From NCBI GenBank assembly GCA_028711115.1, contig JAQTSV010000001.1, positions 326,032 to 390,031 on the forward strand: DNA of 64,000 bases, read 5' to 3'. The stretch's first letter is position 1. The number at the start of each line of letters is the position of its first letter. The notes under the pieces are model-generated. The model searched no databases. It was not told the origin of the DNA and saw only the letters and a list, made by a program, of their open reading frames with translations. Positions 14,299-33,227 of this stretch are shown one piece after another. Position numbers and translations under genes: made by a program. The stretch comes from Candidatus Omnitrophota bacterium. GTDB lineage: Bacteria; Omnitrophota; Gorgyraeia; Velamenicoccales; JABMQK01.

Positions 14299-15582
14299 AT
14301 GAGAATTATTTTGATTCTATACGATTTTATCTTGATTTTGTTGATACCGTTTTATATTTGTTCCTTGATATTAAAGGGCAAATTTAGCCGGGAGGTTTTT
14401 AAGCGTTTCCGGATAATAGACAAGGATATTTTAAAGACCATCGATAATAAAAATGTTATCTGGCTGCACGCTGTAAGTTTAGGCGAAATTTCCACTTGCA
14501 AGAGCCTGATCAGACAATTAAGCCTTAGATTCCCTCAGAAGATTATTTTTATCACCACTATTACTTCTACGGGCAGGGCCTTGGCACAAAGTTTTTCCAA
14601 GGATAATGTGGTAAGCGCATACATACCTTTTGATTTGAGTTTTCTTATAAATCCGCTTATTAAGATAATAAAGCCGAGCTTACTTATTTTAATTGAAACA
14701 GAACTTTGGCCGAATCTATTGTATCACACAGAAAAAAGAAAGATTCCCGTCTTGGTATTGAATGCAAGACTGTCGGATCAGTCTTTTGGTAAATATCGTT
14801 TCTTTGGCTGGTTTGTGAAAAGATTGACCAGGGGAATAAAGATGTTTTGCGTCCAATCTGATATAGACAGAGATAGATTCTTGGAATTAGGTGTTGCAAG
14901 AGAGCGCGTGAATGTAACCGGCAATATGAAATTTGATGCGATTGAAGAATTGGGTCCAGAACAGCTGGGGAAGCTGGATAGTTTCAAGAATAAAATCGCT
15001 CTATCAGAAGAAACTTTTTTTATCGTGGCTGGCAGCACACACAATCAAGAAGAAGAATATATCTTAGATGCCTTTATTGAATTGCATAGGCGGTTTAATA
15101 ATTTGCGGCTGTTAATTGCGCCTCGCCATCTGGAAAGGTTGGGTTCTATTGAAGATTTGATTGAGAAAAAAAATATAAAATCAGAGAGGTTTTCCCAATT
15201 GAAATCAGCATCTTCAGATTCAATTTTACTTCTGGATACTATCGGTGAACTGCGGCTTGTTTATGCCTTGGCCAGTCTTGTATTTGTGGGCGGAAGCCTC
15301 GTTCCCATAGGCGGGCACAATATATTAGAACCGGCCTTTTTTGAAAAACCGATAGTGGTTGGCCCTTATATGCATAATTCCAAAGCCATAACAGAACTTT
15401 TCTTGTCTGGCAATGCTTTGGTCCAGCTAAAAGATACCAGCGAGTTAAAGTCAAAAATCGCAGAACTTATTTCCAACAGGGACAAGCTTATAGCTTTGGG
15501 TAAGGCCGCAAAGTCAGTATTGGCATCTAAGCAAGGCGCCACAATTTTAAATTTAGGCATAATCGAGAAGAATATTTTATGA
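14299..15582 (+). CDS. waaA: 3-deoxy-D-manno-octulosonic acid (Kdo) transferase
   Basis: 427 aa. IWLHAVSLGEISTCKSLIRQL and ITTITSTGRA are typical KdtA/WaaA N-terminal motifs. It sits next to lpxK. Confidence 0.9.
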   Translation: MRIILILYDFILILLIPFYICSLILKGKFSREVFKRFRIIDKDILKTIDNKNVIWLHAVSLGEISTCKSLIRQLSLRFPQKIIFITTITSTGRALAQSFSKDNVVSAYIPFDLSFLINPLIKIIKPSLLILIETELWPNLLYHTEKRKIPVLVLNARLSDQSFGKYRFFGWFVKRLTRGIKMFCVQSDIDRDRFLELGVARERVNVTGNMKFDAIEELGPEQLGKLDSFKNKIALSEETFFIVAGSTHNQEEEYILDAFIELHRRFNNLRLLIAPRHLERLGSIEDLIEKKNIKSERFSQLKSASSDSILLLDTIGELRLVYALASLVFVGGSLVPIGGHNILEPAFFEKPIVVGPYMHNSKAITELFLSGNALVQLKDTSELKSKIAELISNRDKLIALGKAAKSVLASKQGATILNLGIIEKNIL

Positions 15583-16670
15583 AATTAGATAATTCCTATC
15601 TTTTGTTCAAGAAAAGAGATCCATTGTTTTGGATGTGCCTGCCATTATTATATCTTTTATCGCTTATCTATTATCTGGTAGTTTTGATTCTTGAATTTGC
15701 ATACAGGATGAAAATCTTACCAACCTACAGAGCGAAATTTAAAGTAGTCAGCGTAGGCAATATTACTTTGGGAGGGACAGGCAAGACTCCGCTTGTAGAA
15801 TGGATAGTGGCTTATTTGAGCAAAAATGGCAAAAGCCCGGGCATTATCATACGCGGTTACAAGAAAGTCAATCCTCACCAGGACGGAATAGTTAAGGATA
15901 AAGCCAGTTACTTTGATATCGGCGATGAAGCCAGTATGTTCAAAGAAGAATTCAAGGGCGTCAGTATTTGCGTAGGCAGAGACAAGATAAAGAGTGCACA
16001 GCAATTGGAGAAAGAAAACTGTGGAGTAGCTATTCTCGACGATGGTTTCCAGCATTGGCGCCTTAAAAGAGATTTGGATATTGTTACCATTGATGCTTCA
16101 TTTTCTCTCTTCGGCCAAATGCTTTTACCTTTAGGCAGATTGCGCGAGCCTTTGAATAGTCTTAAAAGAGCCGATATTTTTGTTCTGACCAAAACTGATT
16201 GGTCGCAGGATAATACTCAGGGTATTAAGAAAGAATTAAAAGAAATTAATCCCAGCGCCCCGGTTGTCAGTTCAATATACCAACCGGTGTGTTTTTCTGA
16301 AATTAAGACAGGGAAGTCTTTCCCCATTGATTCTGAGAAATTGGCGGATAAGCCGGTTTTTATTCTGTCCGGCATTGCCAATCCTTTATATTTCGACAGG
16401 ATGCTTTCTAAATTAAGGCTAAAGATCAGACGAGAATTTATTTATCCTGACCACTACGCCTATAAAAGCAATGACTTAGAACTCATAAATAAATTAGCCC
16501 GGGACAACGATACAGGTATCATAATTACTACCCATAAAGATGCGGTGAAATTAAAACAGTATGTTAATTTTATGAAAAACACAGATATATATTATTTAAA
16601 AATTAAATTAAAAATCACGGAAAATGAAAAAGAATTCTCTGATAGATTACTGTCTTTATTTAATAGCTAA
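15579..16670 (+). CDS. lpxK: Tetraacyldisaccharide 4'-kinase
   Basis: 363 aa. VVSVGNITLGGTGKTPLVEWI (LpxK P-loop) and ILDDGFQH. ATGA overlap with waaA. Confidence 0.9.
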   Translation: MKLDNSYLLFKKRDPLFWMCLPLLYLLSLIYYLVVLILEFAYRMKILPTYRAKFKVVSVGNITLGGTGKTPLVEWIVAYLSKNGKSPGIIIRGYKKVNPHQDGIVKDKASYFDIGDEASMFKEEFKGVSICVGRDKIKSAQQLEKENCGVAILDDGFQHWRLKRDLDIVTIDASFSLFGQMLLPLGRLREPLNSLKRADIFVLTKTDWSQDNTQGIKKELKEINPSAPVVSSIYQPVCFSEIKTGKSFPIDSEKLADKPVFILSGIANPLYFDRMLSKLRLKIRREFIYPDHYAYKSNDLELINKLARDNDTGIIITTHKDAVKLKQYVNFMKNTDIYYLKIKLKITENEKEFSDRLLSLFNS

Positions 16671-18573
16671 AGTCATAACTGCAATTGTCAGGTTTGTCCC
16701 GATAGGCTTTAGCATTTTTATTATAAGGACGCAAGGTGCTTTGGCGTTTTATTTACTGAGAAGAAAAAGAAGCATCGCCTATAAAAATTTAAAGATCGCC
16801 TTTCCGCACTATACCTGCGACAAAATCAACAGAATAATAAAGCTGGCATTCATGAATTATGCCCAGCATTTTATAGAGATATTTTATTTACCCTGGATGG
16901 ACCAAAGCTATATTGATAGATTTATAGAATTCGACGGGCTGGAAGAGGTTTTAAATGTTATGCAGAATAAAAAAGGCAGTATTTTTTTATGCCTGCACGA
17001 AGGCAGCTGGGAAGTGGGTAATGTAATTTTTTCCCAGGCTTTAAAGGAACACGATTATACGATATTGGCAAGGACGCAGCCCAAGATTCCCTATCTGAAT
17101 CAGCTGCTTAACGAGTATAGGGCAAAGAGAAATTGTAAAATTCTCACCATAGATGACAATCTGCGCCCTATCGTTGAATGTTTGAAAAAGGGTTTATCTG
17201 TGGGCATGGTCGCAGACCACGGCGCGCAAGGAGGGATATTCGTTGATTTCTTCGGCAGGCCGGCACTTACTCCTACCGGTGCAATGAAGCTGGCCTTAAA
17301 ATTAGATACCAATCTGTTTTATGGCTTTATAAAAAGGCAAAAAGGCGGCCGCCATAAAATTACCATTCGTCCTTATAATTTGGTTAGGACTGAAGATGCG
17401 GATAAAGATTTAAAACTAAATCTTGAAAACATAAATCGTAAATATGAGGAATTTATCAGCGAGTCGCCGCAGGAATATTTATGGTTTTTTAAAAGATGGA
17501 AATACTCTCCCCAGAGAAATATTCTGGTACTCAGCGATGGTAAACCAGGCCACCTGAAACAATCTTTAGCTGTTTTGGATCTGATAAAAACCCTGCCTTT
17601 TCAGGTAAAATCCAATTTGGTAGAGATAAAGTTTAAAAATAACTTGCAGAAATTAGCTTTCAATATTTGTGCGTTCTTTTTCAGCAGCAGCTGCCAGGGC
17701 TGTATGCAATGTTTACGCCGCTTATTAGATCCTGATGATTCCCGAAAGCTTTTATCTAGTTATTATGATGTAGTTATATCCTGCGGTTCCGGTTTATCTA
17801 TGTTAAACAGGCTGGTCGCTTTCGAAAATATGGCCAAGAGCATTATAGTGATGAAGCCGGGGATGTTCAGTTTAAAAAGATTTGATCTGGTAATTGTTCC
17901 GGAGCACGACGATGTCATAAAACTCAGCAATTTAGTCTTGATAAAAGGAGCTTTGGCAGGAAGAATAGACAGCCATAAAGAGCGCATAGACACAATAATC
18001 AATGATAATAAATTGAATAATCCGCCGCTGTCTCGTCCAGTGATAGGGCTGTTACTGGGCGGAAGCAACAAATATTTGTTTTTAGATAAGGACACGGTGG
18101 CAAAAACGATGGATTCGCTGGATGATTTTGTAGATGAGATCGGCGGCTCTGTTTTGGTATCTACTTCCAGAAGAACAGGCAGAAATATAGAGCAGTTTTT
18201 GAAGGAGAGATTGGTCACAAGGCCAAAATATAGAATGCTGATTATTGCCAGCGAGCACAATCCCCCTGGTTCGCTGGAGGCAATTTTACATTTAAGCGAC
18301 ATCCTGGTTGTTTCCGGAGACAGCATCTCGATGGTGTCTGAAGCCGTCAATTCAGGAAAACATGTAGTGGTCTTTAGATTAAATAGAAAAATACCAGTCT
18401 ACTTATCCAAACACGAAAGATTTATTGATAATCTTGGTAAAGATGAATATGTTTATGTGGCCTCGGCAGAGAATTTATCAAATATCCTTGCGCATCTGTG
18501 GAAGCATAAACCTTTGATAAGAAAGATTAATGACGAAGAAATTATTTTGGATAGATTAAAACAGATTATCTGA
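16624..18573 (+). CDS. Fusion protein: lipid A late acyltransferase (LpxL/HtrB-like, aa 1-~295) plus an ELM1/DUF1022-type GT-B-like domain (aa ~300-649)
   Basis: N-terminal half: RRKRSIAYKNLKIAFP, LCLHEGSWEV (the HX4E-type acyltransferase motif position), MVADHGAQ, PEQYLWFFKRWK-like end. C-terminal half (from ~nt 17515): NILVLSDGKPGHLKQSLAVLDLI and VIGLLLGGSNKYLFLD are typical of bacterial ELM1-family proteins. It is one uninterrupted ORF. Confidence 0.75.
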   Translation: MKKNSLIDYCLYLIAKVITAIVRFVPIGFSIFIIRTQGALAFYLLRRKRSIAYKNLKIAFPHYTCDKINRIIKLAFMNYAQHFIEIFYLPWMDQSYIDRFIEFDGLEEVLNVMQNKKGSIFLCLHEGSWEVGNVIFSQALKEHDYTILARTQPKIPYLNQLLNEYRAKRNCKILTIDDNLRPIVECLKKGLSVGMVADHGAQGGIFVDFFGRPALTPTGAMKLALKLDTNLFYGFIKRQKGGRHKITIRPYNLVRTEDADKDLKLNLENINRKYEEFISESPQEYLWFFKRWKYSPQRNILVLSDGKPGHLKQSLAVLDLIKTLPFQVKSNLVEIKFKNNLQKLAFNICAFFFSSSCQGCMQCLRRLLDPDDSRKLLSSYYDVVISCGSGLSMLNRLVAFENMAKSIIVMKPGMFSLKRFDLVIVPEHDDVIKLSNLVLIKGALAGRIDSHKERIDTIINDNKLNNPPLSRPVIGLLLGGSNKYLFLDKDTVAKTMDSLDDFVDEIGGSVLVSTSRRTGRNIEQFLKERLVTRPKYRMLIIASEHNPPGSLEAILHLSDILVVSGDSISMVSEAVNSGKHVVVFRLNRKIPVYLSKHERFIDNLGKDEYVYVASAENLSNILAHLWKHKPLIRKINDEEIILDRLKQII

Positions 18574-18574
18574 T

Positions 18575-20653
18575 ATGAACGTATTACACATACTTTCGAA
18601 ATTCGATTCATACGATGCCATAGCCACAACGCGTGACATGGCTACGTATCTTGTCCGTAATGGCTGCAACTGTATGATTGCATCTTCTTTTGACAGCCAG
18701 ATTCTGGATTTAGATAAATCCAATGCCAAATATTGCCAATTGTCTTCATTTGAAACCAATATCAAGGATTTCTTTATTGCCTATAAAAGATTGAAGGAAA
18801 TTATTATGGCCAACAACGTGGATATTGTGCACACGCACTCAATTTTAGGCAACTGGCTTGCATTTTGGGTATGCCGCCATACGGATAGATATTTAATCAA
18901 TAGTTGTTATGATTTTTATTCCAAGAATATTTTTAATTACGGATTGATTTTAGCCAATCAAGTTGTCGTGCATAATGAAGCCGCAGGCAAGCATATCATA
19001 AACAATTTTAATTTACCCATAGAGCGGGTGTGTTTTGTAAAGGGCGGGCTGGATTTGGAAAAATTTAATTTTCAGGGCATTGACCAGCGCTCCAAGACAG
19101 ATTTTAATATCGGCATAATTCCTTCTTTGTTTTCCGACAAGGGGTATGAATACTTCTTTAAAGCCATGGTTAAGGTAGTGCGCAACACCCCCTATTTAAA
19201 AATTTGCGTAATATCCTCGCCTTACTTTAAGAAAAATATCAAGGAGGATTTGGGATTTTGGGCGAGAAGGTTAGGTTTGATTAACTACGTAAATTTCCTG
19301 GATAATCCGGATTCAGATTTTAAGGTTCTATCCAGATTAAATCTTTTGATATTTACTCCCATTAAAGAGAGTGCTTCGACAAGATTAATTATTGAGGCTC
19401 AAGCGTATGGCGTGCCGGTCATTTCTACGCGGGTAGGAGGAGTGGCAGAGGCAATATCAGAGGATAAAACCGGTATTTTAGTGCCTCCCAAGGATAATAA
19501 TGCTTTAGGCAATGCCATAATAAGAATATTGAAGAATTTTCAATTATGCCGGGAAATAACCATTGCGGCACGCAAAAGGATAGAAGAAGAATTTAATTTA
19601 GCGCAGAACTCCGTCGGTTTAATCGACGTCTATAAACAAGTGAAGAACAAAAGAAAAATATTGGTGATTAATATAGGAAAAACCCAGGATGTTGTGTCGG
19701 GCATTCCGGCGTTGCGTATTCTGAGGAAAGAATCCCTCAATACGCAAATAAGCGTTTTGATGCCTTCACATCTAAGATGTTTATTGCAGCGTTGCCCTTA
19801 TATTGATGAATTGATGGTATACGATTATACATCTAAACAAAAAGGTTTATTAGGTTTCAGGGATATTTTGAAATTGCTGATAAGAAAGAGGCCGGATATA
19901 GCCTTTGATTTAAATAATAGCATTATGACACATTTACTGGCATATTCTAGCCTGGCCAATAAAAGGTACGGCTATAGCGACAGGTTTTTAAAGTTTCTCA
20001 TTAATCATAATATGCCACGATTCCATGAATCTTTGGGATTGATAGAAGACAAGTTGGCCATATTGGGTTTATTGGGCATAAATGGCAAAGATGATAAACT
20101 GGAATTATGGCCGTCCCAGGAAGATATGGATTTCGCGGATAATTTTTTGAGAGATAACTGGATAGGCAACGAAAAGATCGTCGGCATAAATATTTCTTTT
20201 AAGAAATTATTCTTTAAAGATTTTAAAACTTTGGATTATTTGGCGTATTTGTGTAACAAATTGGCAGGCAGGCATATGCGGGTTATCCTTATCAGTTCAA
20301 AAGATGATCCTGATATAAAAGATGAATTGTTAAAGAGGACGAGTTCTAAGCCGATTTTCTTAACAAGAACCATCTCGGCTATACAATTAGCCTGTCTCAT
20401 AAAAAAATGCGGTATCTATATAACTTCGGATATCGAGTCTTTATATCTTGCTATTGCGATGAAAGTTTCTTCCATAATGTTGTTAGCGACAAGAAACATA
20501 TTCGACAGCAGGTTATATAAAAATGTTGAGTTGTTGTCCATAAAAGATTTCCGCCTCACTCGGCGCAGAAGACATAAAAGAATGCGATTAGCCCAAGAGG
20601 AGGACACTGATTTGGTGATACAAACAATAAACAGATTAACCCAGACACAATGA
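18575..20653 (+). CDS. Fusion protein: GT4 (GT-B, RfaG-like) glycosyltransferase (aa 1-~355) plus a GT9 heptosyltransferase-like domain (aa ~360-692)
   Basis: N-terminal half: MNVLHIL..., ESASTRLIIEAQAYGVPVISTRVGGVAEAISEDKTGILV (the GT4 E-x7-E region). C-terminal half from ~nt 19650: KILVINIGKTQDVVSGIPALRILRKE (GT9 N-terminal signature). Confidence 0.7.
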   Translation: MNVLHILSKFDSYDAIATTRDMATYLVRNGCNCMIASSFDSQILDLDKSNAKYCQLSSFETNIKDFFIAYKRLKEIIMANNVDIVHTHSILGNWLAFWVCRHTDRYLINSCYDFYSKNIFNYGLILANQVVVHNEAAGKHIINNFNLPIERVCFVKGGLDLEKFNFQGIDQRSKTDFNIGIIPSLFSDKGYEYFFKAMVKVVRNTPYLKICVISSPYFKKNIKEDLGFWARRLGLINYVNFLDNPDSDFKVLSRLNLLIFTPIKESASTRLIIEAQAYGVPVISTRVGGVAEAISEDKTGILVPPKDNNALGNAIIRILKNFQLCREITIAARKRIEEEFNLAQNSVGLIDVYKQVKNKRKILVINIGKTQDVVSGIPALRILRKESLNTQISVLMPSHLRCLLQRCPYIDELMVYDYTSKQKGLLGFRDILKLLIRKRPDIAFDLNNSIMTHLLAYSSLANKRYGYSDRFLKFLINHNMPRFHESLGLIEDKLAILGLLGINGKDDKLELWPSQEDMDFADNFLRDNWIGNEKIVGINISFKKLFFKDFKTLDYLAYLCNKLAGRHMRVILISSKDDPDIKDELLKRTSSKPIFLTRTISAIQLACLIKKCGIYITSDIESLYLAIAMKVSSIMLLATRNIFDSRLYKNVELLSIKDFRLTRRRRHKRMRLAQEEDTDLVIQTINRLTQTQ

Positions 20654-21756
20654 AGATCTTGCATATCACAACCCATTTGAACAGAGGAGGCATAACCAGT
20701 TATTTGGCTTCCTTGGCAATAGGATTAAAAAAGAGAGGCCACAGCGTGACAGTTGCTTCCAGCGGAGGAGACTCACAGGAGTTATTTCTAAAAAATAATA
20801 TCGGGCATTTAAGTATTCCCATACGCACTAAAAAAGAAATCAGCCCTTCGGTATTATTTTCTTATTTTATTTTAAGCAAATTCCTTAAGGATAATCCGGT
20901 AGACATTATTCACGCCCATACCAGGGTAACGCAGGTACTGGCTTGGTCTTTGGCCGGGAGATTCAAAATCCCGCTGGTAACCACCTGTCACGGATTTTTT
21001 AAACCACGCTGGCACAGGAAAAAGTTTGCCTGTTGGGGCAATAAAGTAATCGCCATAAGCCGCCCCGTAAAGGAACACCTTATCCGTGATCTTAAAGTCT
21101 CAGAGGAGAATATTTCTTTAATCCATAATGGCGTAGATTTGGCAAAGTTTAGAGAACATACGCTTGAGGAGATTAATTATTTTAAAAAAGAAATAGGAAT
21201 ACCGGATGGTTCTTTTGTGGTAGGCACTGCTGCCAGGTTTTCTACTGTTAAGGGATTAGAATATTTTATCAAAGCTCTGCCGGCTGTATTAAAGGAAAAC
21301 AAACAGGTTATTTTTTTGCTTCTCGGTTATGGAGAAGAGGAATACAGATTGAGACAAATAGCCAAAGATTTACAGGTGGACAATAGGGTGATTTTCTTCA
21401 GGCCGACAAAAGATACATATGAGTATCTTTGTGTCTTGGATGTTTTTGTCATGCCGTCAATACAGGAAGGGCTGGGGCTTTCTATACTGGAGGCACAGGC
21501 GCAGAGAATACCGGTCATTGCATCGGATGTCGGCGGCATACCGGATATAATAGACAATAGCTTAACCGGAATATTGGTTGAGCCAAAAGATGAATCAGCG
21601 TTAAGCAATGCCATAATAGAATTGATTAAAGATAATAATCTTTATTCAAACATTAAAAATAATGCCTACGACAGGATAGTAAAGGATTTTACCGTTGAAC
21701 AAATGGTCGCAAAGACCGAAGCCGTATACAAGGAGTTATTATGCCGTTTAGAATAG
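20650..21756 (+). CDS. Glycosyltransferase family 4 (GT-B)
   Basis: 368 aa. Motifs: MKILHITTHLNRGGI and PSIQEGLGLSILEAQAQRIPVIASDVGGIPDIIDNSLTGILVEP. Confidence 0.85.
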   Translation: MKILHITTHLNRGGITSYLASLAIGLKKRGHSVTVASSGGDSQELFLKNNIGHLSIPIRTKKEISPSVLFSYFILSKFLKDNPVDIIHAHTRVTQVLAWSLAGRFKIPLVTTCHGFFKPRWHRKKFACWGNKVIAISRPVKEHLIRDLKVSEENISLIHNGVDLAKFREHTLEEINYFKKEIGIPDGSFVVGTAARFSTVKGLEYFIKALPAVLKENKQVIFLLLGYGEEEYRLRQIAKDLQVDNRVIFFRPTKDTYEYLCVLDVFVMPSIQEGLGLSILEAQAQRIPVIASDVGGIPDIIDNSLTGILVEPKDESALSNAIIELIKDNNLYSNIKNNAYDRIVKDFTVEQMVAKTEAVYKELLCRLE

Positions 21757-22574
21757 TCAAAGCAATTTCGGTAACATTGATTATATTGTTATCGCTGGCG
21801 TTAATATTCGGTTTATTCTTAAGGACTAAATATATTGCTCCTGTGCTTATGTATCATTATGTGGTGGATACCCCCGAGGTAAAGAGCGACAAACGTATTG
21901 TCACGCCAAATACTTTTGATAAGCAGATGCATTTTCTAAAGGTGAATAATTATAATGTTATTTCCTTGGAAGAATTTGCCGGCCTCATCAAACAAAATAA
22001 AGAAATGCCCAAAAATACAGTAGTTATTACTTTTGACGACGGACATTTGGATAATTACAAAAACGCTTATCCTATATTGAAGAAATACGGTTTGAAAGCC
22101 ACTATGTTTGTTATTAGCGATTATCTTTCCAAACCGAATTTTCTTACCGAGGGACAGATAAAAGAGATGAGTGATTCCGGATTAATTACCATAGGCAGCC
22201 ATACCCTTACCGAACAATATCTGCCGCATATCGGCGATGAAGTTATGTTAAAGAAAGAAATCTACGATTCCAAGAGGAAATTAGAGGAGATTTTGAATAA
22301 ACCCGTAAATTGTTTTAGCTATCCCATAGGAGGATTTAATAAGAAGATTAGGCAGATGGTTGTCGATGCCGGCTATACGCTTGCAGTTGCAACAAGCCCG
22401 GGGCTCAATTATCCTAATAACGATACCTTTGTTATAAAAAGAGTGAGGATTTCCGAGAATTCAAAGAATTTATTTATTTTCTGGTTTGAGACATCCGGTT
22501 TTTATAAATATCTCCTGGAATTACGCAAGAATTACGAAAACCCGAGAAACAAAAATGACGGATCCGAATCATAG
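21741..22574 (+). CDS. Polysaccharide deacetylase (NodB homology domain, CE4), membrane anchored
   Basis: 277 aa. N-terminal TM segment. VVITFDDGHLDNYKNAYPILKKYGLKATMFV (NodB motifs 1-2), SHTLTE, YPIGG. Confidence 0.85.
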   Translation: MPFRIVKAISVTLIILLSLALIFGLFLRTKYIAPVLMYHYVVDTPEVKSDKRIVTPNTFDKQMHFLKVNNYNVISLEEFAGLIKQNKEMPKNTVVITFDDGHLDNYKNAYPILKKYGLKATMFVISDYLSKPNFLTEGQIKEMSDSGLITIGSHTLTEQYLPHIGDEVMLKKEIYDSKRKLEEILNKPVNCFSYPIGGFNKKIRQMVVDAGYTLAVATSPGLNYPNNDTFVIKRVRISENSKNLFIFWFETSGFYKYLLELRKNYENPRNKNDGSES

Positions 22575-23607
22575 AAGAATCTTGATCGTCGAGGTAAATT
22601 GGATAGGCGACGTTTTGTTTTCTACGGCAGCCATACGTGCTTTAAAGAACAAATACCCGCAGTCTTACATCGGAGTCCTGCTGCATAAGCGCTGCAGTGA
22701 AATCCTGGCAGGCAATCCGTATATAAATGAAATTATTATTTTGGATGAGAAAAACGAACACAGAGGTTTATTCGGTAAATTAAGATTAATACGCCAGTTA
22801 AAATCAAGGCAGTTTGATGCGGTGTATTTATTTCATCGTTCCTTTACACGGGCCTTGATTTGTTTTCTGAGCGGGATAAAGAACCGTATAGGTTACTATA
22901 CTACCAAGAGAAGATTTTTACTGACTGAAAATGTGCATGCCCCGAAAGAAGTAATCCATCGGGCAGTTTATTATTATTATCTCGTGGCCAGGAGTATTCC
23001 GTCTGACCCCAGGTTTCTCCGCTGCGATTTTTCTGTTGCTGATCAGGATATAACTTATGTAAGCAGCCTGTTGCAGAAAGAAAACACTAAGGACAAGACG
23101 CGGCTGGTGGTAATTCATCCCGTGGGCAATTGGTTGCCTAAGCGTTGGCCAAAAGAAAATTTTGCTAAATTAGCAGATGTATTGGTGGATAAATTTGGAG
23201 TCGGCATTATATTTTCCGGAGCTTCACAGGAACAAAATATTATAAATGATATTTTGAGATTGATGAAGAATAAAGCAATAAATCTGTGCGGCAAAACTAC
23301 AATTAAACAATTGGGTGCGCTGTTTATAAAAGCAGACCTGGTTGTTTCTGCTGATTCAGGTCCGCTGCATCTGGCTGTGGCTTTGAATAGGCCTGTTGTC
23401 GCCTTGTTCGGCCCTACCTCAAAAGATATTACCGGCCCCCTGACTCAACAAAACATTGTTTTATTACAGAAAGAAATAAATTGTATTATTCCGTGTTATA
23501 AAGAGAATTGTTCGGATAATCGTTGTATGAAACAGATAAGCGTTAAAGATGTAATAAATGCCATAGAAGAGAAAAAATGGTTAGCGAACGTAAAAGGCAA
23601 GAAGTAA
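22555..23607 (+). CDS. Glycosyltransferase family 9 (LPS heptosyltransferase-like)
   Basis: MTDPNHRRILIVEVNWIGDVLFSTAAIRALK, DSGPLHLAVAL, and a C-terminal Cys cluster CIIPCYKENCSDNRCM. I prefer ATG 22555 over the ORF-track start at 22486. Confidence 0.85.
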   Translation: MTDPNHRRILIVEVNWIGDVLFSTAAIRALKNKYPQSYIGVLLHKRCSEILAGNPYINEIIILDEKNEHRGLFGKLRLIRQLKSRQFDAVYLFHRSFTRALICFLSGIKNRIGYYTTKRRFLLTENVHAPKEVIHRAVYYYYLVARSIPSDPRFLRCDFSVADQDITYVSSLLQKENTKDKTRLVVIHPVGNWLPKRWPKENFAKLADVLVDKFGVGIIFSGASQEQNIINDILRLMKNKAINLCGKTTIKQLGALFIKADLVVSADSGPLHLAVALNRPVVALFGPTSKDITGPLTQQNIVLLQKEINCIIPCYKENCSDNRCMKQISVKDVINAIEEKKWLANVKGKK

Positions 23608-25601
23608 AGAAAATCCTTTTTATCACACTGTCTAATATCGGCGATGTTATTTTAACTTTGCCCAGCTTAGACTATTTGAAGCATAGGTTTAAAGACGCTT
23701 CCTTTACTATTTTGAGCGGTCCTTATGCCTCAAGATTATTCTCCGGCGACCCACGCATTAAAGAAAATATTTCCTATGATAAACACATGCTTTTCAGAAA
23801 GAAACTTACTTTTTTTAACCGCTTAAGAAAGGAAAATTTCGACGTAATTATAGATTTGCGCGATACAGCTTTTCGCTGGTTTGCACAGGCAAAATTTAAA
23901 AATCCCTGCATTATTAATGTGCCAAAGGATATACGCCATTTGAGATTAAGTCATTTATATAAGACTAAGAAAGCATTCAATGATACGACGAGAGTTGAGG
24001 ATATTCGCATTCCTCCAGCGAGCATATATATAGACAGAAAAGCAGAAGATTCGGCAAATAATTTACTTAAGCAATATAGTCTCTCGCTTAATGCAGAATA
24101 TATTGTTGTTTCTCCGGGAGCGCGCAGCCGCACAAAACGCTGGCAGAAGGAAGGATTTATCCAGGTCTGTCGAGAGCTTCTAAAAAACTGCTGTGTAATA
24201 CTTATCGGCGATAAAGACGATGGTGCCATAACGCAGGAAATTAACAGAGAGCTGGATAATCGCTGTATTGATTTGGCGGGGAAGACAGATTTATCAGAAG
24301 TCATGGCGATTTTAAAAAGCGCAAAGTTAGTCATCTGTAATGATAGCGGAATATTGCATATAGCAAGCTACTTCAATAAACCAACTCTGGCAATTTTTGG
24401 GCCGACCGATGAAAATAAATTTGGCCCTTGGTCAGAAATTAGCGCGGTCGTAAGGAAAAATACGATTTGTTCTCCTTGTCAGAAAGACAACTGTACGAAT
24501 GGATACCGTTGCCTGAGAAATATTTCGCCGCAATTAGCAGTGGATTATGCGCATGCGCTTATAGAAGGAAAAATCCCCGCGCCGCCCGTTAATTACAGAA
24601 GAATTTTAATTACCCGCACAGACAGGCTGGGAGATGTATTGCTATCTACGCCTGTAATAAAAAATCTAAGGGATAATCTTCCCGGCGCTTATATCGCTAT
24701 GATGATAAAGTCATCCTTGGAAGATTTATTGAAAGGCAATCCTTATCTGGATGAAGTGATACTTTTTGACAAAAGAGGAAGGCATGCAGGGATTGTTAAC
24801 TCATTTCGTTTTGCCGGAGAGCTGAATAAGAAGAATTTTGACCTGGCTTTAATTTTACATCCCCGGATTAGAGTGCACATTATTTTATTTCTTGCTAGAA
24901 TTAAAGAGCGCATAGGATATGACATAAAGTTTGGGTTCTTGAATACCCGTATTTTAAAACACACAAAGCACCTCGGTGAAAAGCATGAATCAGAATATAC
25001 CCTGGATTTTTTAAGGGAACTGGGCATTGATAAGTTTGATAAGACGATGTTTATGCCTGTTTATAAAGAAGCTGAAGAGTGGGCAGTGAGCTTCTTAAAG
25101 GAGCGAAGGTTATCTGACAACAAAGTTGTATTAATCCATGCCCAGGCCAGTTGCCCGTCGAGATTATGGCCCGATGATTATTATAATCGTTTGATAGAAG
25201 ATATTATAGATATCCACAAGGCTAAAATTATTTATGTAGGAGATTTAAGAGACGAAGGCATAAAAGAAAGCGAAAATATAATTAATATGACCAAAAAGAC
25301 CAGCATTGCGCAGCTGGCGAGTTTAATAAAACACAGCGACCTGCTTATTTCTAATGATTCCGGTCCGGTGCATATTGCAGTGGCTTTGGGCACGCCTGTT
25401 ATTTCCATATTCGGACGCAACCAGCCGGGCTTAAGCCCGAGGAGATGGGCTCATTCAAATGCAAAAAGTGTATTCCTGCATAAAAGTGTGGGTTGCGAAG
25501 TTTGTTTTGCCCACGATTGTAATAAAGGTTTTGCCTGCCTGAAGGCGATTCAACCTCAGGAAGTTTTTGCATACGCCGATAAATTTTTATCAGGCAGTTA
25601 A
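23577..25601 (+). CDS. Tandem double GT9 (two complete heptosyltransferase-like domains in one polypeptide)
   Basis: 674 aa. Domain 1: KKILFITLSNIGDVILTLPSLDYLK, DSGILHIASY, CSPCQKDNCTNGYRCL. Domain 2 (from ~nt 24590): RRILITRTDRLGDVLLSTPVIKNLR, DSGPVHIAVAL, CEVCFAHDCNKGFACL. Confidence 0.8.
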   Translation: MVSERKRQEVKKILFITLSNIGDVILTLPSLDYLKHRFKDASFTILSGPYASRLFSGDPRIKENISYDKHMLFRKKLTFFNRLRKENFDVIIDLRDTAFRWFAQAKFKNPCIINVPKDIRHLRLSHLYKTKKAFNDTTRVEDIRIPPASIYIDRKAEDSANNLLKQYSLSLNAEYIVVSPGARSRTKRWQKEGFIQVCRELLKNCCVILIGDKDDGAITQEINRELDNRCIDLAGKTDLSEVMAILKSAKLVICNDSGILHIASYFNKPTLAIFGPTDENKFGPWSEISAVVRKNTICSPCQKDNCTNGYRCLRNISPQLAVDYAHALIEGKIPAPPVNYRRILITRTDRLGDVLLSTPVIKNLRDNLPGAYIAMMIKSSLEDLLKGNPYLDEVILFDKRGRHAGIVNSFRFAGELNKKNFDLALILHPRIRVHIILFLARIKERIGYDIKFGFLNTRILKHTKHLGEKHESEYTLDFLRELGIDKFDKTMFMPVYKEAEEWAVSFLKERRLSDNKVVLIHAQASCPSRLWPDDYYNRLIEDIIDIHKAKIIYVGDLRDEGIKESENIINMTKKTSIAQLASLIKHSDLLISNDSGPVHIAVALGTPVISIFGRNQPGLSPRRWAHSNAKSVFLHKSVGCEVCFAHDCNKGFACLKAIQPQEVFAYADKFLSGS

Positions 25602-27695: not shown

Positions 27696-28631
27696 ATGAA
27701 TATAAATCTGTCTAAGATTAAGACCTATTCTATAAGCAAAAGGAAGAGCAGAGTGGCAATAAATATTTTTGCCAAGCCTCAGCGAAAAGGCCAGAGGTTT
27801 AAGGATTTTTATAATTCCTTGCCGCAAATCCTCAAGGCAGAGGATTTCAAAATTAGCGTAGATTCAATTATCAAGGCATACAAAAACCATAAGCCCGTTA
27901 TATTCTTACTGGGTGCTCACGTAATAAAGTGCGGATTAAGCCCATTGATAATTCAGTTGATAAAAAAAGGCATAATAAATGCAGTGGCTTTAAGCGGCGC
28001 AGGAATGATTCATGATTTTGAGATTGCTTCTAACGGGAAGACCTCAGAGGACGTATTGAAAGGTTTGATGGACGGCAGTTTTGGCATGGCAAAAGAGACA
28101 GCTGGTTTTTTAAATAACAGTACAAGCGAGGCAGCCAGAAACGATGAAGGTTTGGGTTTTACCGTCGGAAAGAATATCAAAGAGGCAAATCTAAGATACA
28201 AAGATTTAAGTATTCTTTACAATTGTTATCTTAAAAAAATACCTGCGACCGTGCATGTGGCTATTGGAACTGATATCATTCACCAGCATCCTAATTTTAG
28301 AGGAGAAGATGCAGGCAAGGCCAGTCTTAGTGATTTCCATATTTTAATAGGGGCGCTTGCAGAGATCGGTAACGGCGGAGTCGTGGTAAATATCGGCTCG
28401 GCAGTAATACTGCCGGAAGTATTTTTGAAGGCGTTGACTATAACCAGAAACTTAGGATACAAGACATTTAATTTTACGTCGGTAAATTTTGATATGTTGC
28501 ATCAATACAGGCCGCAACAAAATATCGTAAGCAGACCTACTCAGCCGAGAGGAAAAGGTTTTTATATTACTGGACACCACGAGATAATGGTGCCGCTTTT
28601 GACAGCAGCTATTTTGGAAAAATTATCGTAA
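27696..28631 (+). CDS. Deoxyhypusine synthase-like family protein (tentative)
   Basis: 311 aa. PVIFLLGAHVIKCGLSPLIIQLIKKGIINAVALSGAGMIHDFEIA resembles the DHS segment IFLGYTSNLISSG.R..I..LV.....DVLVTTAGG.EED. IPATVHVAIGTD and the C-terminal IMVPLLTAAILE resemble the DHS segments IPVF.PA.TDG and LVFPLLVAETF. The comparison is from memory, not a search. Confidence 0.4.
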   Translation: MNINLSKIKTYSISKRKSRVAINIFAKPQRKGQRFKDFYNSLPQILKAEDFKISVDSIIKAYKNHKPVIFLLGAHVIKCGLSPLIIQLIKKGIINAVALSGAGMIHDFEIASNGKTSEDVLKGLMDGSFGMAKETAGFLNNSTSEAARNDEGLGFTVGKNIKEANLRYKDLSILYNCYLKKIPATVHVAIGTDIIHQHPNFRGEDAGKASLSDFHILIGALAEIGNGGVVVNIGSAVILPEVFLKALTITRNLGYKTFNFTSVNFDMLHQYRPQQNIVSRPTQPRGKGFYITGHHEIMVPLLTAAILEKLS

Positions 28632-28642
28632 TTTCAAATATT

Positions 28643-29680
28643 ATGCAGATAACAAACAGATTAAAATCCATAATCTCAAAGTTCGCAAACGTAAAGATTC
28701 TGGTCATCGGTGATTTAATCCTCGATGAATATATTTACGGAGACGTGGACAGGATTTCTCCCGAAGCACCCGTCCCTGTGGTCTGGGCAAAAGAGAGAAA
28801 ATTCCTTCCCGGCGGTGCAGCCAATGTGGCGGCAAATATAAGCAGCTTTGGCGCAGGCGTAAACCTTGCAGCCATTGTGGGTAAAGACGATCACGCGCAT
28901 ATTTTATTGTCAGAGCTGAAAAAGAGACATATTGACACCGACGGTGTGCTTGAAGTTTTTAACAGATGTACTTCTGTTAAAACCCGTGTGGTTGCCCGCC
29001 AGCAGCAGATTGTGCGCGTTGACTGGGAGAATACAGAAGAGATAAAAGATAGCCTTCAGGACAAGATAGAGGACTTTATTGGGAAGATTGTGAAAAAGTG
29101 CGACGCTGTGATTATCGAGGATTATGGAAAGGGATTAATCACCCCGCGGCTTGTAACCTGTGCTGTTTCACAGGCAAAGGCAAACAATAAGGTGATTACA
29201 GTAGATCCCAAAGAAGAAAATTTCGAGTATTACAGGGGCGTAACGGCCATAACACCGAATCGCAAAGAGGCAGAAAATGCCATCCGCAATATAAAGATTA
29301 AGAATGCATACAGCAACTTAAGAGTGACCAGCGATAAATTATCCAGGGATAAGGATGTTGATTTGGCAGGCAGAGGATTATTGGAGTATTTGAATTTGCA
29401 GGCTGCATTGATTACTTTGGGCGATAAAGGCATGCGTCTGTTTGAGAAAGGAAAGAAGTCCTATCAGATAGACACAGTGGCCCAGGAAGTATTTGATGTA
29501 TCCGGCGCAGGCGACACGGTGATTGCTGCTTTTACTTTGGCCTTGGCTTGCGGCGCGACGATGCAGGAGGCAGCCACTATAGCTAATTTTGCCGCGGGCA
29601 TAGTCGTAGGGAAAAGCGGTGTGGCCACAACTACTCAGAATGAATTAATTCAAACAATGAAGCATTATAAAAATAGTTAA
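28643..29680 (+). CDS. hldA: D-glycero-beta-D-manno-heptose-7-phosphate kinase (RfaE/HldE domain I only, PfkB family)
   Basis: 345 aa. KILVIGDLILDEYIYGDVDRISPEAPVPVV and DVSGAGDTVIAAF (PfkB signature). No adenylyltransferase domain is fused. Confidence 0.85.
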   Translation: MQITNRLKSIISKFANVKILVIGDLILDEYIYGDVDRISPEAPVPVVWAKERKFLPGGAANVAANISSFGAGVNLAAIVGKDDHAHILLSELKKRHIDTDGVLEVFNRCTSVKTRVVARQQQIVRVDWENTEEIKDSLQDKIEDFIGKIVKKCDAVIIEDYGKGLITPRLVTCAVSQAKANNKVITVDPKEENFEYYRGVTAITPNRKEAENAIRNIKIKNAYSNLRVTSDKLSRDKDVDLAGRGLLEYLNLQAALITLGDKGMRLFEKGKKSYQIDTVAQEVFDVSGAGDTVIAAFTLALACGATMQEAATIANFAAGIVVGKSGVATTTQNELIQTMKHYKNS

Positions 29681-30158: not shown

Positions 30159-30887
30159 ATGGATGTAGTAGGAATAATTCCGGCGAGATTTAACTCTACG
30201 AGATTTGAAGGAAAAGTCTTGGCTGATATAAACGGCAAACCCATGATACAACACGTCTGGGAAAAGGCCAAACAGTCACAGCTATTGGATGAATTGATTG
30301 TTGCCTGTGACGATGAACGGGTTTATAAAACCGTAAAGGATTTTGGCGGTAAGGCTATTTTTACAGCAAAGGAACATCCGTCAGGCACAGACCGTATAAC
30401 CGAGATAGTCAATCCTTTGGATGTGAAGATTGTAGTAAATATCCAGGCGGATGAACCGATGATTCATCCCTCGATGATAAACGGTGTTATCGAAGAGCTC
30501 CTGGCAGACAAGAGTTTAGTCGTCGCCACTGTGATAAAGAAAATCGAGCGTCCCGACGAAATAGGCGACCCCAATGTGGTAAAAGTCGTATTCGACAAGA
30601 ATAATTTTGCCCTGTACTTTTCGCGTTCAACCATACCTTTTTTAAGAGACGCAGAAACGCAGGGAGTTTGTTACTATAAACATATCGGTTTGTACGCGTA
30701 TACCAAGGATTTTCTGTTTACTTATAAAAATCTCAACCAATCCACATTAGAAAAACTGGAAAAGTTGGAACAACTGCGTATTTTAGAGAACGGTTACAGG
30801 ATTAAAGTCGTGGAGACGAAATTTGAAACCTACGGAGTGGATACTCCCGAAGATTTAATCCGCGTAAGGCAGAATATCAATAATTAG
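30159..30887 (+). CDS. kdsB: 3-deoxy-manno-octulosonate cytidylyltransferase (CMP-Kdo synthetase)
   Basis: 242 aa. Motifs: IIPARFNSTRFEGKVLADINGKPMIQHV, NIQADEP, GVDTPEDL. Confidence 0.92.
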   Translation: MDVVGIIPARFNSTRFEGKVLADINGKPMIQHVWEKAKQSQLLDELIVACDDERVYKTVKDFGGKAIFTAKEHPSGTDRITEIVNPLDVKIVVNIQADEPMIHPSMINGVIEELLADKSLVVATVIKKIERPDEIGDPNVVKVVFDKNNFALYFSRSTIPFLRDAETQGVCYYKHIGLYAYTKDFLFTYKNLNQSTLEKLEKLEQLRILENGYRIKVVETKFETYGVDTPEDLIRVRQNINN

Positions 30888-30898
30888 GGAGCATTATT

Positions 30899-31732
30899 AT
30901 GGTAAAAGAGATAAAGATAAGAGATATTAAGATTGGCGCAAGGAATCCTTTTGTGCTTATCGCCGGTCCGTGCGTAATCGAATCGGAAGAGTCCAGTTTA
31001 TATCATGCGCGCAAAATAAAACAGATATGCGACAGCATGGGTATTAAGTTTATTTTTAAATCGAGCTATGATAAGGCAAACCGCACATCTTTAGATTCTT
31101 ATCGGGGCCCCGGCTTAAAGAATGGGCTAAAGATTTTAGCCAAAGTGAAAAAAGACCTGAAGCTGCCGGTATTAAGCGATGTGCATTGCAGGTCAGAGGT
31201 AAAAGAGGCCGCAAAAGTTTTGGATGTAATTCAGGTGCCGGCATTTTTATCGCGCCAGACAGATCTTATCGTAGAGGTAGCCAAGACCAAAAAAGTCATC
31301 AATTTAAAGAAAGGGCAATTCCTGGCCCCTTGGGATATGGGCCCGATAGTAAAAAAGATTGAATCCGCCGGAAATAAAAATATCCTGATTACGGAAAGAG
31401 GCGTTAGTTTTGGTTACAATAATTTGGTCAGCGATTTCAGGGCGCTTTCGTTGATGCGGCAATTTGGTTATCCGGTGATATTTGACGCTACGCATAGCGT
31501 GCAGCTGCCGGGCGGAAGAGGCGATTGCTCCGGAGGTCAGAGAGAATTTGTGGCAAGTCTGGCCCGCGCTGCGATTGCCTTTGGTTGCGACGGATTATTC
31601 CTGGAAGCGCACAGGGCTCCTGACGAGGCGCTTTGCGACGGGCCGAATTCGATTTCTTTGAAAGAATTGGAAAATATCCTAAAAATTACCCAAGAAATAG
31701 ACGGGATAGTTTTAAAAAACAGGTTAAGGTGA
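30899..31732 (+). CDS. kdsA: 3-deoxy-8-phosphooctulonate (Kdo-8-P) synthase
   Basis: 277 aa. Motifs: FVLIAGPCVIESEE, FKSSYDKANRTS, IQVPAFLSRQTDL, FDATHSVQLPGG. Confidence 0.93.
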   Translation: MVKEIKIRDIKIGARNPFVLIAGPCVIESEESSLYHARKIKQICDSMGIKFIFKSSYDKANRTSLDSYRGPGLKNGLKILAKVKKDLKLPVLSDVHCRSEVKEAAKVLDVIQVPAFLSRQTDLIVEVAKTKKVINLKKGQFLAPWDMGPIVKKIESAGNKNILITERGVSFGYNNLVSDFRALSLMRQFGYPVIFDATHSVQLPGGRGDCSGGQREFVASLARAAIAFGCDGLFLEAHRAPDEALCDGPNSISLKELENILKITQEIDGIVLKNRLR

Positions 31733-31734
31733 AT

Positions 31735-32700
31735 ATGTCTACTCATATAAGACAAGCAAGAAAGGTATTGGATATTGAAGCGCTGGCAATTAAGGACTTA
31801 GCTAGAAAGCTGGATAAGAATTTTGACCGGGCAATATATATTCTTGGCCGCTGCAAAGGCAGGGTGGTTCTGACCGGAATGGGCAAGGCCGGTATCATTG
31901 CCCAGAAGATTTCTGCCACGATGTCTTCTACCGGCACGCCGAGTTTATTCCTACATTCGGCCGAGGCAATTCACGGCGATTTGGGAAGAGTAACCGAGGA
32001 TGACGTAGTTATTGCATTATCCAACAGCGGCGAGACAGAAGAGGTAAGAAAATTATTGCCGCTTATAAAAAAAATAGGCGTAAAACTCATATCATTTACA
32101 GGGAATAAAAAATCTACTTTAGCAAGATATAGCGACGTAGTGTTTGATGTAAGCGTAAAAAAAGAAGCCTGCCCCTTGGGATTGGCCCCTACTTCCTCTA
32201 CCACGGTAATGTTAGCAATGGGAGATGCGCTTTGCGTCTGTCTTCTTAAAGAAAAGAAATTCAAGGAAGAGGATTTTGCTTTCTATCATCCGGGCGGTTC
32301 ATTAGGCAGAAGGCTTTTGCTTAAAGTGGAAGATATTATGCGTAAAGGAATTGGCAATCCCATTGTCAGGGAAAACAAACTTGTGAAAGAAGTGCTCTAT
32401 GCGATTACAAAGGCGCGCGCAGGCGCAGCATCCATAGTAAATAAAGAGGGAAGACTGGTGGGTATTTTTACCGACGGAGATTTACGCCGTCATATGGATG
32501 GAAATAAAAATCTGCCTGTCCTTAAAATAAAAGACGTAATGACTAAAAACCCCGTGGCAGTAACTAAAGACCAGTTGGCTGCCGAGGCGCTGCGTATTTT
32601 ACAAGAGAAAAAGATAGACGAAGTCCCCGTAGTGGATAAATCTCATCGTCCTGTGGGTATGCTCGATGTCCAGGACTTACTCAAAGCCGGTTTAGTATAA
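31735..32700 (+). CDS. kdsD: Arabinose-5-phosphate isomerase (SIS domain plus two CBS domains)
   Basis: GRVVLTGMGKAGIIAQKISATMSSTGTPSLFLHSAEAIHGDLG, with a CBS pair at the C-terminus. I prefer ATG 31735 (just after the kdsA stop at 31730-31732) over the ORF-track start at 31633. Confidence 0.9.
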   Translation: MSTHIRQARKVLDIEALAIKDLARKLDKNFDRAIYILGRCKGRVVLTGMGKAGIIAQKISATMSSTGTPSLFLHSAEAIHGDLGRVTEDDVVIALSNSGETEEVRKLLPLIKKIGVKLISFTGNKKSTLARYSDVVFDVSVKKEACPLGLAPTSSTTVMLAMGDALCVCLLKEKKFKEEDFAFYHPGGSLGRRLLLKVEDIMRKGIGNPIVRENKLVKEVLYAITKARAGAASIVNKEGRLVGIFTDGDLRRHMDGNKNLPVLKIKDVMTKNPVAVTKDQLAAEALRILQEKKIDEVPVVDKSHRPVGMLDVQDLLKAGLV

Positions 32701-32705
32701 GGATT

Positions 32706-33227
32706 ATGACTATTCAGGAACGTGCACGAAAAATAAAACTTCTGATTTTAGATGTTGACGGTGTATTGACAGACGGCCGCATTATCTATGACAGCAAAGG
32801 CAGGGATTTAAAACTATTTGATGTGCACGACGGCCTGGGCGTATATCTTCTGTACCGTATGGGCATAAAAACAATTCTTATTACTGCCAAAGGCTCAAAG
32901 GCGATAAAACCTCGGGCAAGGGATATGCATGTAGATAAAGTCTACGAAAATATTTTTCCCAAGACAAAAATATACGAGAATATACTCAGCGATTACGGCG
33001 TAACTGACGCGGAAGTTTGTTTTGTGGGTGACGATCTGGTTGATCTTTGCATTCTAAAAAAAGTAGGTTTTCCCGTGGCTGTTTTTAATGCCTGTCCGGA
33101 AGTAAAGGAGATAAGTTCCTATGTTACCCAGAAAAAAGGCGGCAGAGGGGCAGTGCGCGAAGTGGCTGAATTTATTCTGAAGTCTCAGGATAGATGGCAG
33201 GAGGCGTTAAAAATTTATGAAGGATAA
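32706..33227 (+). CDS. kdsC: Kdo-8-phosphate phosphatase (HAD superfamily)
   Basis: 173 aa. Motifs: IKLLILDVDGVLTDGRIIYDSKG and VCFVGDDLVDL. Confidence 0.9.
   Translation: MTIQERARKIKLLILDVDGVLTDGRIIYDSKGRDLKLFDVHDGLGVYLLYRMGIKTILITAKGSKAIKPRARDMHVDKVYENIFPKTKIYENILSDYGVTDAEVCFVGDDLVDLCILKKVGFPVAVFNACPEVKEISSYVTQKKGGRGAVREVAEFILKSQDRWQEALKIYEG

Follow-up and report, generated by a model that had tools for sequence, protein, structure and literature searches.

The window analysed here is a stretch of 64,000 nucleotides from a Candidatus Omnitrophota bacterium (assembly GCA_028711115.1, contig JAQTSV010000001.1, positions 326,032-390,031 of the forward strand). At 16624..18573 (+ strand) it carries an open reading frame (ORF) with an ATG start in which an LpxL-like late acyltransferase of lipid A is fused to an ELM1 domain resembling KdoT, a glycosyltransferase of GT-B fold from Acinetobacter baumannii. 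The fusion, of 649 amino acids (AA), is real and conserved, and we consider it very probable that its product is a bifunctional acyltransferase and glycosyltransferase acting on lipid A that bears 3-deoxy-D-manno-oct-2-ulosonic acid (Kdo). The best explanation of the whole, which we favour with reasonable confidence, is a bifunctional late lipid A/inner-core enzyme that combines LpxL-type acylation with KdoT-like Kdo transfer; taken by itself, the assignment of specifically KdoT-like Kdo transfer to the ELM1 half has slightly better than an even chance of being right. Residue numbers below are those of the 649-AA protein unless KdoT or LpxM is named, and conservation counts refer to an alignment of 102 fusion homologues reaching down to 31% identity.

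According to the original prediction, this ORF joins an LpxL/HtrB-type acyltransferase to a full ELM1 domain, and a search with two Pfam profiles was proposed as the check. The search supported both halves, each far above threshold: PF03279 (Lip_A_acyltrans) covered AA 10-293 (E 8.9e-53; score 179.8 bits, cutoff 22.3; profile positions 14-294 of 295), and PF06258 (Mito_fiss_Elm1) covered AA 308-631 (E 1.4e-43; score 149.6 bits, cutoff 27). Both peptides cited in that prediction, NILVLSDGKPGH and VIGLLLGGSNKY, were found in the fusion ORF. A protein search at E <= 1e-10 returned 181 relatives, and nearly all of the best 120 of them, from which the architecture was read, are ~650 AA long and possess both Pfam domains, at identities down to 31%. 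The two domains meet without a flexible linker at a junction of constant length (17503..17535, + strand; AA 294-304, YSPQRNILVLS), with 11 residues separating K293, the end of the LpxL domain, from D305 of the first ELM1 strand in 102/102 homologues.

We examined the spread of this architecture in two ways. With each GTDB species represented by one genome, a scan showed LpxL and ELM1 contiguous in one frame at no fewer than 26 loci, this and the other locus counts of the scan being lower bounds among the matches listed. An ELM1-domain search of 1.84 billion 50%-identity representatives gave 2392 proteins (E <= 1e-3), the best 150 of which were scored for architecture: 114 were LpxL-ELM1, 3 were LpxK-ELM1 and 33 contained ELM1 only, the last group including many contig-edge fragments and about a dozen truly standalone proteins. 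We found nothing in favour of the single ORF being an artefact that merges two genes; the few ELM1-only representatives are mostly such contig-edge fragments. Against it stand the identical 649-AA protein on 6 contigs (including that of GCA_028716625.1; the record names a Candidatus Omnitrophica metagenome-assembled genome (MAG) as source), the fixed junction in more than 100 homologues, at least 26 species-level genomes with both domains in one frame, and the predominance of LpxL-ELM1 among the best ELM1 matches. A sequencing error, frameshift or misassembly was thus rejected, and the possibility of two separate genes, which the original prediction had named as its refutation, found no support and retains a negligible probability.

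An AlphaFold2 (AF2) model of the whole 649 AA reached a mean predicted local distance difference test score (pLDDT) of 92.4 and a predicted template modelling score (pTM) of 0.89. Given these high values and the constant junction, the modelled protein probably holds its two domains together as a single rigid unit.

The acyltransferase half (16651..17502, + strand; AA 10-293) was assigned to the LpxL/LpxM type by PF03279, phmmer and Foldseek. Using phmmer, A. baumannii LpxM (5KN7) was matched with E 1.4e-15, and its catalytic H and E line up with those of the window protein. LpxM was also the best structural match of the AF2 model, the top Foldseek hits being 5KNK and 5KN7 (E 5e-15, target TM-score 0.66-0.68); 5KNK is the PDB entry of the E127A catalytic variant of this protein. 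The HX4E catalytic dyad, H125 and E130, lies in HEGSWE (16996..17013, + strand), aligned with HFGTWE of LpxM, and residues H125, G127, W129, E130 and D198 are invariant in the 102 homologues. Of all 19-residue stretches, the one at AA 16-34 (16669..16725, + strand) is the most hydrophobic, with a Kyte-Doolittle value of 1.99 vs. 1.44 for the next one; it falls within AF2 helices (AA 4-22 and 27-44) and is a predicted membrane anchor by analogy with LpxL/LpxM. In its PF03279 domain, its HX4E motif in register, its predicted N-terminal hydrophobic anchor and the position of its gene after lpxK in a lipid A operon, the protein resembles E. coli LpxL and A. baumannii LpxM (5KN7/5KNK). Yet the known LpxL and LpxM are single-domain proteins of about 300-330 AA, whereas the window protein runs on into a glycosyltransferase. 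Within NCBIfam, 17 LpxL/LpxM/LpxP-type matches were obtained, in the first half only and all under their curated cutoffs (best 126.7 bits vs. 248).

The ELM1 half (17512..18570, + strand; AA 297-649) was assigned as an ELM1/GtrOC1, KdoT-like glycosyltransferase domain of GT-B type by PF06258, BLASTP and Foldseek. It aligns with A. baumannii KdoT at 25% identity over 292 AA (BLASTP, E 1e-16), and KdoT itself matches PF06258 with E 5.5e-60; the A. baumannii GtrOC1/KdoT gene used for comparison (L001:8998-9888) is on a replicon filed as a plasmid in PLSDB. The BLASTP alignment places five motifs of the two proteins in register, namely SDGKxGH, PEHD, GGS, TSRRT and DSxSMVxEA. The first of these, SDGKPGH in the window protein (17533..17553, + strand; D305, G309, H310), corresponds to SDGKAGH of KdoT with its D8 and H13. 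PEHD (17899..17910, + strand) supplies H428 and D429, the counterparts of KdoT H109 and D110, and is conserved in 101/102 sequences. In SRRT (18166..18177, + strand; S515, R516, R517, T518), R517 equals KdoT R180; S515 and R517 never vary, and R516 is present in 101/102 and T518 in 98/102 homologues. DSISMVSEA (18319..18345, + strand), in the C-terminal, donor-binding lobe, is aligned with DSVSMVFEA of KdoT. Altogether, D305, G309, H310, Q313, S386, G388, P412, G479, G480, S515, R517, S567, M570 and E573 are invariant in the ELM1 half, and H428, D429, T514, R516 and T518 are nearly so. Judged by their sequences, both halves look catalytically competent.

Foldseek matched the C-terminal half of the model with GT-B proteins (UDP-GlcNAc 2-epimerases, GT1 enzymes and the GT4 enzyme MshA; E 4e-8 to 1e-5), matches that are generic and uninformative on the donor sugar. 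No solved structure of any ELM1-family member was found by sequence search. The domain also contains a helical insertion of ~40 AA (17632..17763, + strand; AA 337-380), which appears as a gap in the BLASTP alignment and is absent from A. baumannii KdoT. It includes the hydrophobic residues LAFNICAFFF as well as a CxxCxxC cluster (C357, C360, C363), and could be a membrane or inter-domain contact. The three cysteines are kept in just 63-76% of homologues, on which ground the cluster was rejected as an essential metal site.

The original prediction regarded bacterial ELM1 proteins as functionally uncharacterised, a statement that two recent studies have made outdated. In 2024, genetics revealed that A. 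baumannii A1S_2903/GtrOC1, an ELM1-like protein encoded by the first gene of the outer-core (OC) locus, is required, along with the GT4 enzyme LpsB, for the addition of a third Kdo (KdoIII) and of N-acetylglucosaminuronic acid (GlcNAcA) to Kdo2-lipid A (PMC10936431). In December 2025, the same protein, renamed KdoT and purified, was demonstrated to move Kdo from cytidine monophosphate-Kdo (CMP-Kdo) to Kdo2-lipid IVA; it was inactive on lipid IVA, preferred the tetra-acylated over the hexa-acylated acceptor, and was membrane-associated without a transmembrane helix (PMC12856342). According to the same work, SRRT is invariant across the family and R180 must be positively charged, the D8A, H13A, H109A and D110A variants stay active, and a Rickettsia homologue complements the Acinetobacter kdoT deletion (PMC12856342). 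The A. baumannii outer-core loci also encode further ELM1-family glycosyltransferases, GtrOC14, 19 and 22 (PMC4172580).

The window domain thus shares with KdoT the PF06258 family, the five motifs and the GT-B fold (here predicted). Both are encoded beside core glycosyltransferases and a Pda1-like deacetylase, with a GT4 enzyme following in action or in gene order. KdoT differs in being a standalone peripheral protein of 296 AA (about 35 kDa), whereas the ELM1 domain of the window is attached without linker to the C-terminus of LpxL, contains the helical insertion with its partly conserved Cys cluster, and belongs to another phylum, in which its core locus includes heptose genes.

With plant ELM1, a mitochondrial fission factor, the domain shares the Pfam family only; the plant protein is a eukaryotic adaptor of DRP3A with no link to lipopolysaccharide (LPS), and its name is misleading for the bacterial proteins. 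A non-catalytic ELM1 half, tethering or regulating LpxL as an adaptor or scaffold in the way plant ELM1 does for DRP3A, would agree with the role of this namesake and with the retained activity of the four KdoT variants, which indicates that several conserved residues are not strictly catalytic. We nevertheless regard it as highly improbable: none of 102 sequences, with identities as low as 31%, departs from the SRRT arginine or the donor-lobe motifs, ELM1 domains occur on two other enzymes and by themselves, and KdoT, a member of the family, acts as an enzyme in purified form (PMC12856342).

The fusion gene lies, as the original prediction had it, after waaA and lpxK and before core glycosyltransferase genes, all of them on the + strand. 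The gene waaA (14299..15582; PF04413, E 1.5e-56) encodes the GT30 Kdo transferase, the maker of the Kdo-lipid IVA acceptor, and is preceded by aroK, dprA, topA and xerC; its product matched the NCBIfam lipid IV(A) Kdo transferase with E 9e-109, under the equivalog cutoff. It is followed by lpxK (15579..16670; PF02606, E 7.8e-81), coding for tetraacyldisaccharide 4'-kinase, the 3' end of which shares 47 nt (16624-16670) with the 5' end of the fusion ORF, in a different frame. An overlap of ~15-47 nt between lpxK and the LpxL domain recurs in most related loci (L003-L029), which suggests translational coupling.

Beginning 1 nt past the stop codon of the fusion is a gene for a 692-AA GT4-GT9 fusion glycosyltransferase (18575..20653), with Pfam GT4 in its N-terminal and GT9 in its C-terminal half. 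Next come genes for a GT4 glycosyltransferase (20650..21756; Pfam) and a polysaccharide deacetylase (21741..22574; PF01522). The deacetylase has a homologue in Pda1 (33% identity, E 7e-30) from the OC locus of A. baumannii, in which the gene order is gtrOC1-gtrOC2-pda1. Two further genes encode a GT9 heptosyltransferase (22486..23607; TIGR02195, 201 bits vs. a cutoff of 134.6) and a 674-AA tandem GT9-GT9 heptosyltransferase fusion with two GT9 stretches (23577..25601); at locus L084, the counterparts of the latter are three separate GT9 genes. The heptose-7-phosphate kinase gene (RfaE domain I) is at 28643..29680 (TIGR02198, 360 bits vs. a cutoff of 345), and the genes for CMP-Kdo supply, kdsB, kdsA, kdsD and kdsC (30159..33227; PF02348, PF00793, SIS+CBS and HAD, respectively), lie 12 kb downstream of the fusion. 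The GC content is uniform (36-42%) across the locus, and no sign of a foreign island was seen in its base composition.

Several other genes of the window were recorded. Between the core glycosyltransferase and kds genes are those of a GSU2086-family protein (27696-28631) and of a small protein with a prepilin-type N-terminal methylation motif (29694-30152). Past kdsC, a 291-AA protein (33217-34092) with an LptC domain at AA 27-167 and an LptA/LptD-N-like domain at AA 180-288 looks like an LptC-LptA fusion, and just after it the ATP-binding cassette (ABC)-type ATPase encoded at 34094-34816 is probably LptB. The trigger factor at 34859-35728 is just 289 AA long; its N- and C-terminal domains are present, and the peptidyl-prolyl isomerase (FKBP) domain was not detected in it. 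A 603-AA ORF at 39156-40967 has no Pfam match.

The loci with LpxL-ELM1 found in the genome scan are labelled Omnitrophota or, on bins of matching synteny, "uncultured Planctomycetia". Among the matches listed, no ELM1 was found within ~8 kb of the LpxL-only genes at 51 LpxL-only loci from other phyla, and among the species genomes listed the LpxL-ELM1 fusion appears only in Omnitrophota-type genomes. Velamenicoccus archaeovorus is one of the bacteria with this fusion (P0163). Across the Omnitrophota loci, the gene order xerC-waaA-lpxK-[LpxL-ELM1]-[GT4-GT9]-GT4-(Pda)-GT9-[GT9-GT9], in which square brackets mark fusions, is kept at 30-40% protein identity. Standalone ELM1 proteins include those of Natroniella acetigena, a deltaproteobacterial MAG and an Omnitrophota MAG.

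Two sister fusions carry the ELM1 domain on other enzymes. LpxK-ELM1 proteins, of ~700-740 AA, form at least 34 clusters; Pfam confirmed the architecture in a single-cell genome of Omnitrophota (L027) as well as on the complete chromosome CP070837.1 (L084). Those of 711-716 AA are encoded at L027:7005-9155, L084:10001-12136 and L085:5728-7863; the flanking synteny at LpxK-ELM1 loci is as in the window, and no LpxL was found in the locus stretch examined. In a neighbour-joining tree of ELM1 domains, built on identity-based distances, without support values and with long-branch outgroups falling inside the ingroup, 29/30 LpxK-ELM1 proteins group together, nested among LpxL-ELM1. As a hint only, this suggests that LpxK-ELM1 was derived once, via loss of the LpxL module, and the overlap of lpxK with the fusion ORF could have been a route to it by deletion. 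The AF2 model of LpxK-ELM1 has a pTM of 0.61 vs. 0.89 for LpxL-ELM1, a comparison confounded by an LpxK-ELM1 alignment of just 28 sequences; on these models, the domain tether may be looser in LpxK-ELM1.

Heptosyltransferase fusions of the GT9-ELM1 type, of 722-742 AA, form 8 clusters (P0356, P0382-P0388), and their GT9 domain scores best as heptosyltransferase I. At the locus of one of them (L087:9001-11205; P0383), the GT4-GT9 fusion gene comes next, and then several GT9 genes. The same GT4-GT9 gene directly follows ELM1 in all three architectures, LpxL-ELM1, LpxK-ELM1 and GT9-ELM1, and the three fusions independently point to the same pathway stage. Among standalone members, the ELM1/GtrOC1 gene of Sinorhizobium meliloti pSymB (L083:8845-9816) lies in a glycosyltransferase cluster with a kdsB paralogue ~1.2 kb away and a kpsF/gutQ isomerase gene at ~7 kb. 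This cluster fits Kdo-related chemistry and supports CMP-Kdo as a family-level donor.

Other arrangements of these families were met in the same searches. The IncP plasmid pPNP1 of Pseudomonas sp. JS425 (L002:4639-6981) encodes a 780-AA ELM1/GtrOC1 protein whose N-terminal 440 AA have no Pfam match; in the ~5 kb around it are genes for an Asp/Asn beta-hydroxylase (LpxO-like), lptG, a CDP-alcohol phosphatidyltransferase and a phosphocholine cytidylyltransferase. Fusions of LPS enzymes are frequent among metagenomic proteins: WaaA-LpxK proteins (PF04413+PF02606, ~730-830 AA) occur in several phyla, and fusions of a GT9 heptosyltransferase with a GmhB-like HAD phosphatase in Nitrospirota (both within P0169-P0237 and P0411-P0499). 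The WaaA-LpxK proteins resemble the window fusion in that two late Raetz-pathway enzymes working on the same membrane-bound lipid are covalently joined; they differ in their partners, with WaaA and LpxK acting one step after the other and LpxL and ELM1 on a single shared acceptor.

Under the bifunctional reading we prefer, the acyltransferase half would put a secondary acyl chain on Kdo2-lipid IVA, and the ELM1 half would move a further Kdo from CMP-Kdo onto that same intermediate. Kdo2-lipid IVA is the substrate of E. coli LpxL. Since this substrate and the preferred acceptor of KdoT coincide, placing both active sites on Kdo2-lipid IVA is the most economical reading. The product of the ELM1 half would then be extended by the GT4 half of the downstream GT4-GT9 protein, mirroring Acinetobacter, in which the GT4 enzyme GnaT/LpsB caps the product of KdoT, and by analogy this GT4 half may be the counterpart of GnaT. 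The fusion would lend an otherwise peripheral KdoT-like domain a membrane anchor, a 1:1 stoichiometry and proximity to the shared lipid substrate. What the analysis shows is which domains are present, how their motifs are conserved, their fold, that the fusion is real and how widely it occurs, and the operon in which it lies; which sugar is donated, where on the acceptor it goes, in which order the two reactions run and whether there is any channelling between them is what we infer in this scheme. The proposal made from the sequence alone, that Kdo2-lipid A or the inner core is what the ELM1 domain works on, is sound and agrees with the published KdoT result. The Rosetta-stone argument behind it accordingly matches that result and opens no new question, the function having been published in 2024-2025.

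Several points weigh against this scheme. The ELM1 half is just 25% identical to KdoT, and GtrOC14, 19 and 22 are also of the ELM1 family, so that its function is not necessarily uniform (PMC4172580). The locus is rich in heptosyltransferases and heptose-pathway genes, while Acinetobacter is without heptose; the inner core therefore differs from that of Acinetobacter, and the position modified by ELM1 may differ as well. Lipid IVA, the product of LpxK, is not a KdoT substrate, and for this reason LpxK-ELM1 argues for co-localisation rather than for strict channelling of consecutive steps. The link of the downstream GT4 with GnaT is drawn by analogy, and the rigid-body arrangement has pTM as its sole measure. 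Acyl position and chain are not assignable because every NCBIfam equivalog score is under its cutoff, and membership of the first half stands at the level of the PF03279 family.

These points bear directly on the question whether the ELM1 half, as a glycosyltransferase, carries out a reaction other than KdoIII transfer, moving a different sugar or acting at another Kdo or heptose position of the inner core or on the lipid A headgroup. The low identity to KdoT, the heptose-based core and the other ELM1 glycosyltransferases of Acinetobacter outer-core loci, presumably of other specificities, leave room for it, and GT9-ELM1 and LpxK-ELM1 fit any reaction near lipid A. We consider it possible but doubtful. 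Every motif implicated in KdoT is conserved, including the charge-essential SRRT arginine, which is invariant, and the standalone S. meliloti member is near kdsB and kpsF paralogues. LpxL and GT9, two of the three fusion partners, use a Kdo2-lipid IVA/A acceptor, as E. coli LpxL and heptosyltransferase I do. In addition, even the distant Rickettsia homologue still complements the loss of kdoT (PMC12856342).

A related alternative is that the Omnitrophota WaaA is monofunctional and that the ELM1 half adds the second Kdo. Monofunctional WaaA enzymes exist elsewhere, e.g. in Aquifex and Haemophilus, and the window, whose WaaA scores under every NCBIfam equivalog cutoff, gives no indication of how many Kdo residues this enzyme transfers. 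We find this quite improbable, as A. baumannii KdoT is inactive on lipid IVA and has been characterised on Kdo2-lipid IVA only (PMC12856342). A more far-reaching version, in which LpxL and ELM1 would form one rigid catalytic body serving as an order-of-assembly checkpoint or a substrate channel, and in which the ELM1 reaction would differ from KdoIII transfer (e.g. a second Kdo, or a non-Kdo sugar on a heptose core), appears unlikely to us.

Our literature search found no publications on LpxL-, LpxK- or GT9-ELM1 fusions or on LPS enzymes of Omnitrophota. What is new here is the joining, without a linker, of LpxL to a KdoT-like domain, an architecture widespread in Omnitrophota, together with its LpxK and GT9 variants. 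The function to which it points is already known from the 2024-2025 publications; the fusion agrees with those experiments and reveals no new function. To our knowledge, Omnitrophota is an uncultivated phylum of very small bacteria, and we know of no chemical analysis of their envelope.

In databases, proteins of this kind bear single-domain names, such as "ELM1/GtrOC1 family putative glycosyltransferase", "KDO2-lipid IV(A) lauroyltransferase" and "tetraacyldisaccharide 4'-kinase", and such naming masks the bifunctionality of the fusion proteins in annotation. On four A. baumannii replicons of 0.56-4.1 Mb that are filed as plasmids in PLSDB and carry the chromosomal OC locus (NZ_CP077849.1, NZ_CP064203.1, NZ_CP104448.1 and CP040041.1), GtrOC1/KdoT is annotated as "nucleoside-diphosphate sugar epimerase".

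The three natural fusions provide independent genomic support for ELM1 enzymes at the Kdo2-lipid IVA stage. Under the more far-reaching version above, which we hold to be unlikely, WaaA-independent transfer of the ELM1 type would be an ancient, multi-phylum feature of LPS biosynthesis, repeatedly fused to the adjacent LpxL, LpxK or GT9. As ready-made membrane-anchored constructs, the fusions may serve for studying the order of acylation and core glycosylation and the dependence of KdoT on its GT4 partner in vivo. The finding would extend the WaaA-independent, KdoT-type step of LPS core assembly beyond the tested homologues of Acinetobacter and Rickettsia (PMC12856342).

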